This document shows positions 50,008 to 57,545 of a stretch of 64,000 bases of DNA, piece by piece. Each line of letters begins with the position of its first letter. Positions within the stretch are counted from its first letter, which is position 1. The stretch comes from Abditibacterium sp. (GTDB lineage: Bacteria > Armatimonadota > Abditibacteriia > Abditibacteriales > Abditibacteriaceae). The position numbers and the translations under genes are program-made. Under the pieces are notes generated by a model, which saw nothing but the letters and a program-made list of their open reading frames with translations, had not been told where the DNA came from and did not search any database. The stretch is taken from positions 3,776,001-3,840,000 of the forward strand of contig CBDASK010000003.1 of NCBI GenBank assembly GCA_965199495.1, written 5' to 3'.

Positions 50008-50415
50008 ATGCGCGTTTTTCCTTTTATGGCAGTTTTGGGCAATCTTTTACGTTGGCGGCGCGGCGAATCTTTAGTTCTCGCCGCGCTTTTGCTCGCGTGC
50101 CTATTCATGCCCGCTGCCGCACAGGGCGCGGTTTTGCCGCCGCAACAGGCGCACGCGGTTTTGCTGTGGCTACAAGCCGAAATGACGCCCGCCAGTGCGC
50201 CGCGCGTCGAGCAAACCGGCGATTTTCGCGCGTTATCCAATCGCGATAACAGCCCGATTTATATTTGCACCGTGCCCGTGGCTATAGCTACGCCGCCCGT
50301 AGAGGCGCGTTTGGCGGCGTTGCAAATTGAAGCGCGTCCGGTTGCCATATTTACGCTCGAATCGCACGAAGCCGCGTTTTTGACGGGCGTGCGCAATAAT
50401 CGTCGGCGCAATTGA
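50008..50415 (+). CDS. Hypothetical protein
   Basis: ORF with a hydrophobic N-terminal segment upstream of secA; no family recognised. Confidence 0.45.
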   Translation: MRVFPFMAVLGNLLRWRRGESLVLAALLLACLFMPAAAQGAVLPPQQAHAVLLWLQAEMTPASAPRVEQTGDFRALSNRDNSPIYICTVPVAIATPPVEARLAALQIEARPVAIFTLESHEAAFLTGVRNNRRRN

Positions 50416-50598: not shown

Positions 50599-53500
50599 AT
50601 GTCACTGTTAAAAAAAATTTTCGGCTCGTCTGCCGACATCTCCAGCTCCGATACCAAAGGCCAGGGAGTTTTGGGCGCCGTGTCGCGCCTGTTCGATAAA
50701 AACGAAAAAGAGATCGCCCGACTGCGACCGACGGTCGAGAAAATCGGCCAAATTGGAACCGAACTCAAAGGTCTCTCCGACGACGAAATCAAAGCCCGCT
50801 CGCTCAAACTCAAGGCGACTTTTCAGGAAAAAGTCACGCAGCGTTTGAAGGCGCAGGGACTGGAATGGCAGGATTTGTCCGCCCAGAAAGATTGGGACGA
50901 CGCTTATAATAAAGCGCGTCTGGACGCCGAAAAAGCGACATTGGGCGAACTTTTGCCCGAAGCATTCGCCCTCGTGCGCGAAGCGGGCGACCGCACCATT
51001 GGGTTGCGACATTTTGATGTGCAGATCATTGGCGGCGCGGCTTTGCACGAAGGCACCATCACCGAAATGCGGACGGGCGAAGGCAAAACATTGGCAGCCA
51101 CGGCGCCCGCTTATCTTAATGCGTTGACCGGGCGCGGCGTGCATTGTGTGACCGTCAACGATTATTTGGCCGAGCGCGATGCCAACTGGATGCGCCCGGT
51201 TTACGAATTTCTGGGACTTTCTGTCGCGTTTTTGCAAAACGACATGGAGCCAGCCGACCGGCGCGTGGCCTATGCCGCCGACCTTTTGTATGGCACTAAC
51301 TCGGAGTTTGGCTTCGATTATCTGCGCGACAACATGGCGCGCTCGCCCGAAGATATGGTGCAGCGCCCGCTCAATTTCGCCATCATTGACGAGGTAGATA
51401 ACATCCTGATTGACGAGGCGCGCACGCCGCTAATCATCTCGGCCCAGGTCGCCAAAACCGACCGGGCACTGCGTCGCCAAGGCATGAGCAAAACCTGCGA
51501 CGGCGTCGCCAAACAATTGATGCCCGCCATCAATGACCAGGAAGTCGAAGCGTTTATTGACGAGTATTCGACCAAAGGCCGCATCGACATCGGCGGCCTG
51601 AGCGACGCGATTTTCAACGGCGGCGCCTTTCCCCACGCGATTGGTTATTTGATCGATTCGTATCTGGCCTCAGAAAAAACCGCGCGCACCGATAACGCCG
51701 CGCACTTGCTGGACGCCGCCGACGAACTGTTCGCCGATAAATTGATTAACCAAGTCGGCAAGGACGAACTGGAAAAAATGGCCCTAACCGCCACTCGTCC
51801 GCAGTTGTTGAATGAAGCGTGGCGCGGCGAAGTCGAGCATATTCTGGAACCGTTCGAGATGGCGTGGCTCAACGCGCGCGACGGCGAGTGGAACGCGCAA
51901 CTGCTCGCGCACGATTTGACTTTGCCTGAAGACGCGGCGTTCGATTTGGAAGAACATATTTCGCAAAGCGAAGATAAAGCCGAAGCGACTTCGCTACTGA
52001 TTGCCGACGAAATGGCACGCCGTGGCTACATCGAGCAGGACGGCGTTGACGCGATTGCGGGCGCGCTGCAAAACGGGCGCGATGCGTTGCGATTGGCGGT
52101 TTTGGAACAGCCGGGCAGCTTGTCGGACGCCGACAAGGTTTTGAGCGAACACGTTCCGGCGGGCGAAATCAGTTCGACCGAAGATGTGCGCCGCATCGTG
52201 AGCGCGCTCGAAGCGATTACGGCGACCGGGCTGGTGCCGTTCGCCACGACCGAGAAATTGTGGAACACGGTCGAACTTTCGGCTGACCGCGACGCTCTGC
52301 GCGCGCAGTTGACGAGCGTGATCGAGAAGCAGTCGGGCGACGTGGCTACACAAATCGTCGGCTTAGTCGAAGAGTATTCCAAGTCGCGCGAGGCGTTTTT
52401 AACTTCGCAAGCCGCCACATTGCGCGACGCGTTGGGCGGACATGAAGCCGTCGTGAAGTTGGCGCAATCGGGCGCCGGAGCCGACGCGTTGAGCGCGGCT
52501 TTGCAACGCGAACTCGCCAAATCCGGCCCGTTCGCCCAGGCGACGAAAGCGTCGGCACAGTTCGTCAAAGAACAAAACGCGGCTTATGGCGCTGTCGCCG
52601 ACCATTTGATCGAGGAAATGTCGCAGTGGGTCGAGATTCCTCAGGGCGCCAAGAAAACCATCGTTTCGATTTTGGGCGAAGGCGGGCGCGCGCCCGAAGT
52701 CGCCGAACGTTTGCTGCTGGCCGTGCGCGATTTGCCGGGCGATTCGTCCGAACTGGCGGCGATTGCTCAGGATGGCGCGAACCAGTTGCAGGGGTGGCGT
52801 CACGAACAGGCGATTTCGTTCGTCGAGAAAATCGGCGGATTAGTGCCGTTGCCCGATGCAGCCACGTCCGCGATTCAAACCGCCATCGAAGACGGCGACT
52901 TTGGCACCAACGGCTTTGAAGAGTTTGTCGGCGCGCAGTTGCTTTCTTCGGAAACTATCGCGCCTTTGGCGAGTGCCATCGAAAGTTATGGCGAGGCGTG
53001 GGACGCGTTTAAAGCCAAATCAAATCAGAGTTTGATTGACAACCTCGGCGGGCGTTTGGAGATGTCGCCGGACGCGAAAATCAATCTGGGCGAACTGCTC
53101 GCCCATCCTTATAAGGGCGCGCTGATTTCGCAGATTTTCGGCACGCTCGCCGCCGACGTTGTGGCGCGCCATTTGGAGCCGCTTTTGACCGAAGAGAACG
53201 CCGGAGCGTTCACCGAAGAGATCAAGCGCCGCGTCTCGATTGTGGACTCGATTGCCAAAAAGTTGAATCCCGCCGAGTTCACCGGAAAATCCGCCGAACA
53301 GTTGATGCGCGCGGTTCAGCGTTTGGTGGTGCGCTCGCTCGAAGTTTTGGAGTTCGACAAGTACAAGCGCGTTATCAAGAACTTGGGTTGGCTAACCGAA
53401 AAAGACGAGAAGCGGCGCACCGCCGCCGTTTCGGACATGGGCGCTTTGGTCGCCGAGCGCGAAGCGGCGCGGCCCATCTTTACCGATCCCGACGGCTTTT

Positions 53501-56500
53501 TGGACACGCTATTGGCCGCCGAAATCCTGACCGAAGGCGAGGCCGTCACCATCGCGCGCGCGCAAATGGAAGCGCCCGAACTGGGCATTTCGCAGATTAT
53601 TGATACGCAATTGCGCTTGCCCGCCGAGCGTCGTCGGCGTTTGGCCGAGGCGAAGTTGCAGGAAGTTCAGTCGGTTTTGGATCAGGGAATTAAGGCGCAC
53701 GCGTTGTTTGAATACAACGTGAATTACGTGATCGGCGGCGGCAAAGAGATCGTCATCGTGGACGAATTTACCGGGCGCACCATGCCGGGCCGCCGCTTTT
53801 CCGAAGGCTTGCATGAAGCTTTGGAAGCCAAGCACGGTCTGGAAGTGCAGATCGAATCGCAGACGGTGGCGACGATCACGATTCAGAATTATTTCCGGCT
53901 TTATAACAAAATTTCGGGCCTGACCGGAACCGCGAAAACCGAGGAAGCCGAGTTTGCCAAAACTTACGGCATCGAAGTCTTAACCGTGCCGACGAATAAA
54001 CCGGTGCGCCGCGTCGATCAGCCCGACGTGGTTTATAAAACCGCCGAGGCCAAACTGCGCTTCATCACGTTTGATATTCTGGAGCATCACTGCGTCGGCC
54101 AGCCGGTTCTGGTCGGCACGCGGTCAGTCGAAATGTCCGAGCGCATGGCGCAGCGATTGTCCGCTCCAGCGCTGCAAACTTTGGTTTTGACGCATTTAAT
54201 TAAGGAACATTTGCGCGCCGACAAATCGCCCGAAGCCGACAAAGCGCCACTGTGGGAGTTCGCGCGCGCGCCGATTACCAACATTAATCCGGTGCAGGCG
54301 AAGAATTTGGCCAAGCAGATGGGCATCAATCCCGACGCGGCCAGCGACGAAAATGTGAGCGCAATTCTAAGTCAGTTCACCGTGCCCAACGCCAGCCGCG
54401 AGCGTTTGGTGGCGGCTTTGAAACAGGGTTTGCCGCACAACGTTTTGAACGCCAAAAACCATCGCAACGAAGCGCGCATCATCGCCGAGGCCGCGCGGCC
54501 CGGCGCCGTCACCATCGCCACCAACATGGCGGGACGCGGTGTTGACATCATTCTGGGCGGCAGTCTGGACGGCGAAAGCCGTTGGCGCGTTTTGACCGAA
54601 CAATTGTTGGCGCGCCAGTTGGAAGGCAAAGGCGTTCATGTCCGTTCGGTCAACGCCGAGGCGACGCAGAAGATGGCGCAGCGATTGACGCCGGATAATT
54701 TGCAAACTCTGGCTTGGGCCGTCGCGATTTCGCGCCGTGTCGAGGAAATGGAGCGCGCGGGCACCCTCGAAGGTCAGGCGGCCAAAGAGATTAAAGATGC
54801 TTTGGGCAGCGACTTGACTTCGCCCGATTATGCCAACCGCGTAAGGTCGCGCGCGCGTCGCAATAATTTGTTGGACAAATTGCCGGTCGATTTAGAGCCG
54901 CTCAATCCGCAGATTGTTGGCGAGTTGGCGCTCGAATTGGGACGGATTATGAATCACCAATACGACGCCGAATCGTTGAACTTGATGCTGCAACACGGCG
55001 TTCCGGCGCAGGAACATCAATCGCAGGACGCGCAGTTGGGCCGCGATCCGGGCGAGTTGGCGTTGCTCTACACCTTAGCCACGCCGATGTCGTTCTCGCA
55101 AAATGCCAGCGAACGCTTGCTCGAAATCTTGGCCGAAGCGCCCGATTTGGATCGGCAATTGTTGGAACTCGTGGCGACCGGACAGATGCTCAAACCCGAA
55201 GCTCTGGCCGCGAACTTGGGCGTGGTCACGCCCGATTGGGTGCAGACGCGACTGGGCGAATTGGGCGTGCCCAACGCCGACGCGGCGGCGGATCGCTTAG
55301 GCGATTTGCCGCGCGACGAAGCCGAAATTACCGAATTTCAACTGGCGCAACAAATGGGCGAAGCGTTCATGGGGACGCCGTGGCTGCGTCAGCGACTGAG
55401 CGAATGGCAATTGGTTGAGGGCGCGCGCGCGTTTGAAGGAACGGAAGAAATGCAGAACGCGCTGCAAGATCAGGCGAACGTGCATTTGCGATTGAACCGC
55501 AAAGCGGCGTTGGCCAAGCGCGAGGAATGGAACTCGCCGCAAAGCCGCCGCGAGTTGGTGGCAGTCGAGGCGCCCAATTTGGTGTTGCTGCAAGAGTTGG
55601 CCGGAGTCGTCGGGCCGGAAGCGCCGATTTTGAATCCCGAATGGCTGCACCATACGTTGAGCGGCATGAACCTCATCACCGACGAAGACGTGATGCAGGC
55701 GCAGATGCAAGCGCAAGTGCAGGATGAAGAAGGCAACCAGAGCATCCAGCCGATTGACGTTTTGGTCTACCGTTTGAAGTTGAGCGGAATGCTCGAAGCG
55801 ATCAAACCGGTTGTGCGCGAGGCGGCGAAACAGGCCGATTCGCACGATCCAACGACGGTCTTTGGCGCGTTGCAGAATGTCGCGCCGTGGTTGCCGACGT
55901 TCGTGGACGACGAATGGTTGGCGCAGACTTTGGCCGAAACGCCGGAACTGGCGTTGCCGGAAGCGACAACGGAAGAGTTGGCGGTCGCCGGGGATTCGGG
56001 CATCGTGCAGATCGAGACCGGCGTGGCTGGTCAGAGCACCGACATCGTTTTGGAAAGCGAGGCGCGGCCCGAAGACATCGCGCACACCAGCGACCGCGAC
56101 ATTATCACCGATTTGGGCGGCTTGCACATCATCGGGTCGGAGCGTCACGAGAGCCGCCGCATTGACAACCAGTTGCGCGGGCGCGCCGGTCGCCAGGGCG
56201 ATCCGGGTTCGAGCCGCTTCTACATCTCATTGGATGACGAGCTGTGGCGTCTGTTCGGCACGCGCGGCCAATTCTTGTTGAAGAGTTGGGACGAGGACGA
56301 GCCAGTCGAGGCGGGCATCATTTCCAAGCAGATCGAGCGCGCGCAGAAGAAGGTCGAGCTGAACCACTTCGAGGGCCGCAAACACGTCTTGCAATACGAC
56401 GACGTGATGAACGTGCAACGCGAAGTCATCTACCGCGAACGCCGCCGCGCCTTGCAGGGCGCTGATATCCGCGACACGGTCGTTGATATGGCGCAAAAAG

Positions 56501-57243
56501 CGGCGATAACTCAGGCCGACGCGCACGCGCCGCGCGCCGTGCGGCCCGAAGAATGGGACACGCGCAAGCTCTACTTGGGGCTGGGCAAACTGTTCGGACT
56601 GAGCGCGCTCAAAGCGCAAATTTCCGATGATGAACAGTTGGAAGAAGCGAGTTGGCAGGAGTTGCCCGACAACGCGTTGGGCAATCCCAGCTTCGACTTC
56701 ATCCTGCGCGATGGACGCGGTTTGAACGAAATCGTCGAGAAATTGTATCAAGACCGCGAACACGCGTTGGGCACCGACCAAACGCGCGGGCTGGAACGTT
56801 GGCAGGTCATGCGTTCGATTGACGAGCATTGGATGGAGCATCTGGCCGAAATGGACTATTTGCGCGATGCGATCTGGCAGCAAGGCTACGCGCAGCGCGA
56901 GCCGATTGGCGTTTATCGTCAGGAAGGTTTCGAGCTGTTCCAGAAGATGCTGGGCGAAATCCGGCGCGAAGTGACGCAGGCGATCTTCGACTATGACGTG
57001 CCCGATTTCGAGCATGAAGACGCCTCGCCCGAACTGGGCGAGATGATCGAAGCCCGATTAGTGGATGCGTTCGCTGGTGGCGACGATGGTCTGGACGACG
57101 GAACATTGTTGGCCAAAGACGCCGACGGCGTTGACAATGACTTGGTGATGACCACGCAAAACACGCGCGAGGGCGCGCCGGGCGAAGGCAATCCCGATTC
57201 GGCCAGCAACCGCGCGGCGCGGCGGGCGAAGCGGCGCGAGTAA
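50599..57243 (+). CDS. secA: Preprotein translocase ATPase SecA, giant form (2214 aa)
   Basis: [95 protein letters not shown]. Confidence 0.96.
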
Positions 57244-57249
57244 ATTAGC

Positions 57250-57281
57250 AAAAGCCCCGATGCAAACGCATCGGGGCTTTT
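57250..57281. terminator. Terminator after secA
   Basis: aaaagccccgatgc-aaac-gcatcggggctttt. Confidence 0.88.
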
Positions 57282-57545
57282 CTGTTTTGGCACTAAAGGA
57301 GTGATTTGGGCGTTACACTCGCAGATCCGCGAACTACTATTTATATCGGTGGCGGTGTCTAAAAGTGAGGCAGTAGGCCATGCACCCAAAAAAGAAACCT
57401 ATGTCTCAACGCGAAAAAGAGTTCGCAAAGTAACGCCCATGAACTCAAACGTTGAATCGGCGCGATTTTGGGGCGCGGCGGAGCGCCTCGTTTCGCTTGA
57501 TGCGTAAACTCAGGCGTTGCGCAGGAAAAACTGCGCGATCAAACC

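Follow-up and report, generated by a model that had tools for sequence, protein, structure and literature searches.

The housekeeping SecA translocase is known from the curated families TIGR00963 and PRK12904 and from structures of the B. subtilis (1m6n, 7xha) and E. coli (2fsf) proteins. In the account given in PMC3101351, the PPXD rotates onto the second nucleotide-binding domain (NBD2), forming a clamp, and Arg357 of the partner SecY is essential in E. coli for starting post-translational translocation. The nucleotide contacts named for NBD2 in PMC9926265 are D492, Q521, R525 and R528, and a 76-residue insert in NBD2 is given in PMC7023208 as unique to Thermales and Hydrogenibacillus. Here we describe the secA gene of an Abditibacterium sp. 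(phylum Armatimonadota, class Abditibacteriia), which lies within a 64,000-nucleotide stretch of contig CBDASK010000003.1 (assembly GCA_965199495.1), referred to as the window. Its product shares with the housekeeping proteins the domain order, Walker A and B, motifs IV–VI and the HSD/HWD. It differs in its length of 2,214 residues, in ∼520 extra residues at the variable (VAR) site, which include a copy of half of NBD2, in an insert of ∼730 residues in PPXD, and in a partner SecY without Arg357.

This SecA passes the curated housekeeping cut-offs of both TIGR00963 (853.7 bits, cut-off 800) and PRK12904 (906.6, cut-off 814) and does not reach those for SecA2. Walker A, the DEAD-like motif and motifs IV, V and VI are all intact. 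No second secA was found by tblastn in the 4.8-Mb genome (95% complete), which also encodes SecY. DNA composition along the gene is flat, and the closest titled records to the VAR insert come from Abditibacterium or Abditibacteriales, with 93–95% identity over the insert.

The VAR insert and its resemblance to NBD2

The insert opens with what sequence comparison identifies, almost certainly, as a tandem duplicate of the preceding ∼175-residue NBD2 segment. A preliminary description of the window had placed a degenerate copy of this segment at the VAR position; the quoted sequences, their coordinates and the single intact frame were all confirmed, and the extra residues do lie between motifs V and VI. 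A hidden Markov model (HMM) for copy 1, derived from 13 SecAs outside the class that all lack the duplication, matches the insert in all 27 class sequences scanned (19.7–41.9 bits; the class sequence L056 was left out), with reversed inserts and PPXD inserts as controls reaching at most 9.6 bits. Most of this signal comes from the helical insert of NBD2, up to a G(V/L)P motif. Alignment of copy 1 with the VAR insert by hhalign gives 97.7% with an E value of 1.8e-12 over 148 columns. The tail match is weak alone (hhalign E 0.05), although its best match lies at the C-terminal position expected of it in 24 of the 26 sequences reported from the 27 scanned (controls, maximum 0.1 bits). In the reverse search, a profile of the insert finds, in most class genomes, the copy 1 that belongs to the same gene. 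Outside the class it matches 64 of 370 genomes, only over positions ∼6–160 and in open frames of 639–1,227 residues; 17 of the 20 such places fetched show the SecA NBD2 pattern.

Within the single protein, the first 45 residues of the two copies align with a score of 64 (z 9.2, 0/1000 shuffles), the motif-V tails with a score of 50 (z 5.8, 0/1000) and the whole copies with a z of 4.7 (1/1000). Self-alignment thus detects the repeat at its two ends, but self-BLASTP of SecA reports none and the helical-insert part alone is not significant (z −0.4). That copy 2 retains this insert, as first proposed, is borne out by the profile; that the insert is lineage-specific is not, as it occurs in 13/13 out-of-class Armatimonadota SecAs examined and at the same site in Thermus. 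On copy 2, Pfam recovers P-loop_SecA only, at E 0.1 and on the tail, and a copy-2 profile run against PDB sequences found no SecA.

The insert is matched in all 31 class genomes of a 401-genome phylum sample, three times in pieces, and an assembly artefact was rejected on this ground. An intein or mobile insert was likewise rejected, no such Pfam family being matched.

The copies are directly adjacent, as originally noted, but the duplicated unit starts ∼5 codons earlier than was first stated. Here K-T-A-E-A-K-L-R pairs with S-L-D-G-E-S-R-W-R, which sets the junction at about 54561/54562. Early-branching class members show it plainly, with AEAKFRAIT repeated as EEAKLRVIT. The unit covers one half of NBD2, namely helix-strand(IV)-helix-insert-strand...strand(V). 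Left out of the duplication are the initial NBD2 strand, motif VI and the strands LHIIG and RFYIS; the segment with LHIIG, motif VI and RFYIS is present once only in SecA. By its sequence, copy 2 is half of a RecA domain and not a complete RecA-like domain, and the earlier proposal of a third, pseudo-RecA-like domain goes too far. In the structure model of copy 2, the duplicated part contains four short strands.

Copy 1 is very probably the working ATPase half. Across 71 distinct sequences (from 81; all kin, divergent families included), its motif columns have a conservation of 0.95–0.97, P-x-L-x-G-T-R-S-V and a further 12-residue stretch are invariant, and motif VI is 0.97 conserved. Three of the nucleotide contacts, Q521, R525 and R528, fall in motif VI, which was not duplicated; the fourth, B. 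subtilis D492, aligns with the D of motif V. In the motif-V-like loop of copy 2, N-M has become G-V and R-G has become Q-S, while T, A-G and D are kept, and copy 2 has very likely lost catalytic function. The loss of conserved motif residues had been recognized in the preliminary description, which missed that the changed residues are themselves invariant in the class. Copy 2 is not decaying. The ratio of nonsynonymous to synonymous substitution rates (dN/dS) in its N-terminal part is 0.08–0.19 in 9/9 pairs, above the motor core yet clearly purifying.

At the DNA level, the motif-V-like codons of copy 2 (window 55996–56055) show 0 and 2 differences to the two nearest relatives, against 2–15 in flanking 60-nt blocks. 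Local recombination and RNA-level constraint are candidate causes.

Proposed role, constraint and origin

The overall best explanation, to which we give an even chance, is a class-wide duplication of half of NBD2 in which copy 1 is catalytic and copy 2 forms a noncatalytic pedestal bearing a docking or regulatory arm. A tandem duplication of ∼175 codons almost certainly brought the first half of NBD2 to the VAR site a second time, with copy 1 probably staying the working ATPase half. The two end pieces of copy 2, N-terminal and C-terminal, are predicted to rejoin into one NBD2-like half-fold, a small noncatalytic α/β pedestal, which would present four acidic helix-turn-helix (HTH) repeats as an arm on the NBD2 surface. 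This arm may face the enlarged PPXD across the substrate clamp, and what it binds would be protein (cargo, SecYEG or a partner) and not nucleic acid. As the VAR site reportedly does in E. coli, it could thereby tune ATPase activation, here alongside a SecY that has lost Arg357. A protein-docking or regulatory role for the arm, taken by itself, is plausible at slightly less than an even chance.

The duplication and repeats could instead be a passenger, locked into a tolerant surface site and kept merely because folding requires them, with no added function. We consider this unlikely, although it retains an appreciable chance. The VAR site does vary outside the class, where motifs V and VI lie 27–165 residues apart in 12 sequences (414–566 in 28/28 class sequences), the number of repeats differs in one lineage, and dN/dS of the add-on exceeds that of the motor core. 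Moreover, an independent SecA of 2,512 residues in another Armatimonadota family has grown elsewhere in the protein, which indicates that SecA tolerates growth in this phylum. Against a passenger stand the retention of the insert throughout the class and the constraint on polar and glycine residues: in the copy-2 tail E, G, V, G, Q and D are invariant in 71/71 sequences (E1806, G1808, G1811, Q1812 and D1815 included), and R1349 in the motif-IV strand is kept in 70/71.

The 2,512-residue protein (G057, L158:553-8091; also G044) has a normal PPXD and VAR and a very long, repeat-looking region after NBD2; its SecY reads KGIRAG.

In a tree of 17 copy-1, 17 copy-2 and 26 outgroup units, copy 1 forms one clade and copy 2 another, which makes the duplication older than the class radiation, in agreement with the age first proposed for it. 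The attachment of copy 2 in the tree is not fixed, because its stem is ∼1.9 changes per column long. This bears on an origin variant in which copy 2 came by recombination from a different Armatimonadota secA and not from within the gene. Its appeal is that, with the copy-2 profile, some out-of-class SecAs outscore the copy 1 of the class itself (up to 49.6 against up to 41.5 bits) and that the two copies are sisters in 0/200 bootstrap trees. However, the approximately unbiased (AU) test does not reject a single clade of both copies (p 0.447), the long stem leaves the placement loose, and exact head-to-tail adjacency is the expected outcome of tandem duplication; we regard recombination as improbable.

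Three further observations concern secA in relatives. One gene (G023:C12:519864-522245, minus strand) is split over several frames with stops, from assembly errors or as a broken gene. Second partial secA pieces occur in two fragmented genomes (G026:C549 and G027:C27), possibly as contamination. The open frame of L059 (G054) spans 1,580 residues with Walker A at residue 580, ∼400 later than usual, owing either to an extended N terminus or to a long upstream frame free of stops.

The acidic arm, PPXD and SecY

The preliminary description had counted ∼320 extra residues within copy 2. These are present, and it had missed that they comprise four predicted HTH/winged-helix-like repeats. The repeats are under purifying selection (dN/dS 0.07–0.17 in 9/9 pairs), again above the motor core. 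ESM Atlas gave no usable match for them. A repeat profile run against 1.84 billion proteins found seven matches, four of them clear SecAs or SecA fragments and three short pieces resembling the same region, and in the organism's own genome it found no protein other than SecA. The winged-helix likeness raises the idea that the repeats bind nucleic acid (ribosomal RNA, secA mRNA or DNA), for ribosome anchoring or regulation. This is quite improbable: the repeat region is strongly acidic in 28/28 sequences (−4.0 to −10.6 per 100 residues), just two of the four repeats are modeled with a wing, and no Pfam HTH family matches any of 25 members at E 0.001, the best HTH-type match being E 0.01 in 2/25.

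The PPXD insert is present in 24/24 measurable class sequences, and its model has no clear fold match. Given the PPXD-NBD2 clamp, both jaws would be enlarged, in a geometry that we infer. The SecY partner is altered as well. By count, R357 is the arginine of GIRPG in E. coli SecY; the C5 loop in the class reads G[YF][AS]PG instead, with A or S at this position in all 28 class sequences fetched, out of 30 matches (one class genome gave none). All 23 out-of-class sequences fetched, out of 30, have R there. This class-wide loss alongside the growth of SecA is one evolutionary coincidence, short of proving co-evolution. A rewired Sec translocase, in which SecY does without the near-universal Arg357 trigger and the half-NBD2 copy, through its decoy motif V and acidic arm, acts together with the giant PPXD as a built-in switch and chaperone gating ATP hydrolysis on cargo and channel binding, is conceivable but distinctly unlikely.

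Least probable of all is a narrower switch, of a kind for which we know of no precedent. Here the copy-2 loop, which stands immediately before the second half of NBD2 and has retained T, A-G and the ribose-bonding D of motif V, would displace the true motif V and hold SecA off until SecYEG binds, replacing the Arg357 trigger missing throughout the class. Against this, the tail is folded when copy 2 is modeled by itself (confidence ∼73–77) and SecA matches span both ends of the model, suggesting that the tail pairs with its own N-terminal part; moreover, the loop departs from motif V in its invariant E, V and Q, favoring a new role over mimicry.

Trigger factor, SecDF, SRP and YidC are present in the genome, SecG as a weak match; SecB was looked for there and not found. 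This survey does not support the SecA add-on as a replacement for a lost Sec factor.

Genomic setting and comparison with described motors

The features are collected in the table. The leader open reading frame (ORF) upstream of secA has no match in NCBIfam, and its layout makes it a candidate SecM-like regulator. Its tail motif, a pattern composed after inspecting the loci concerned, occurs in 18/21 family loci, 0/4 other class loci and 0/12 out-of-class loci; the export signal was judged by eye. The motif is unlike RAPP. Directly after the secA stop, an inverted repeat and a T run (window 57246–57285) look terminator-like by eye.

Table. Features of the secA locus in window coordinates; the SecY position refers to its own contig
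Feature	Position	Strand	Description
Leader ORF	50008..50415	+	135 aa; hydrophobic N terminus, variable middle, conserved C-terminal tail L..HEAA.LSG.RTNRR; just upstream of secA
secA	50599..57243	+	One intact frame, 2,214 aa; housekeeping SecA with two giant inserts
PPXD insert	51466..53658	+	∼730 aa, predicted all-helical, acidic, weak ∼70-aa repeats; class-wide; model pLDDT 84.4, pTM 0.71
Copy 1	54037..54561	+	aa 1147–1321; very probable first half of active NBD2: 14-residue motif, helical insert, 10-residue segment, 10-residue motif; aligns to B. subtilis, Thermus and E. coli SecA
Helical insert in NBD2	54175..54423	+	∼85 aa; phylum-wide; same site as the Thermus 76-aa insert
Copy 2, N-terminal part	54562..55023	+	aa 1322–1475; helix, strand VHVRS (motif-IV position), helix, helical-insert copy, strand after GVP; DSSP H6-22 E27-31 H34-43 ... 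H138-147 E151-155
Acidic repeats	55036..55968	+	Four HTH/winged-helix-like repeats (predicted) in copy 2, at the place of helix C of copy 1; repeats 2 and 3 with beta wing
Copy 2, C-terminal part	55999..56058	+	Motif-V-like strand and loop (21 residues quoted); D invariant 71/71
Putative native VAR remnant	56059..56115	+	Short, 19 residues; column conservation 0.89 (aa 1821–1832)
Second half of NBD2	56116..56238	+	Single copy, with motif VI (19 residues quoted)
SecY	G000:C3:3356302-3357348	+	C5 loop compared with that of the SecY loci L108-L157

Among structures, the best PDB sequence match is Thermus thermophilus SecA (2ipc, 997 residues), which carries its 76-residue helical insert at the same NBD2 site but has a single NBD2 copy and no repeats. 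The Thermus-type insert, published as thermophile-specific, is now extended to Armatimonadota. The VAR subdomain of E. coli SecA, at the same position as the class insert, is a small helical region and not an NBD2 duplicate. It is reported to regulate ATPase activity and ADP release (Das et al. 2012, PMC3347061). The tandem winged-helix proteins RPC62/C82 have no sequence similarity to the SecA repeats, which, among the 1.84 billion proteins searched, are without a relative outside these SecAs. We found no description of a half-NBD2 duplication in SecA in the literature covered, from which most subscription journals and supplements fell outside.

Bacteria depend on SecA, which varies very little among them; a whole class in which it has doubled in size, partly through the copied half of NBD2, is a measure of how much the motor can be remodeled. 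With SecY Arg357 lost as well, the class lends itself naturally to studying how SecA is activated by SecY and what the VAR site does. Vestigial RecA-like domains occur in SF1/SF2 motors such as TraI and Mfd, but there they are whole domains in nucleic-acid motors. In contrast, copy 2 belongs to a protein translocase and is half a domain, lodged within the active one.
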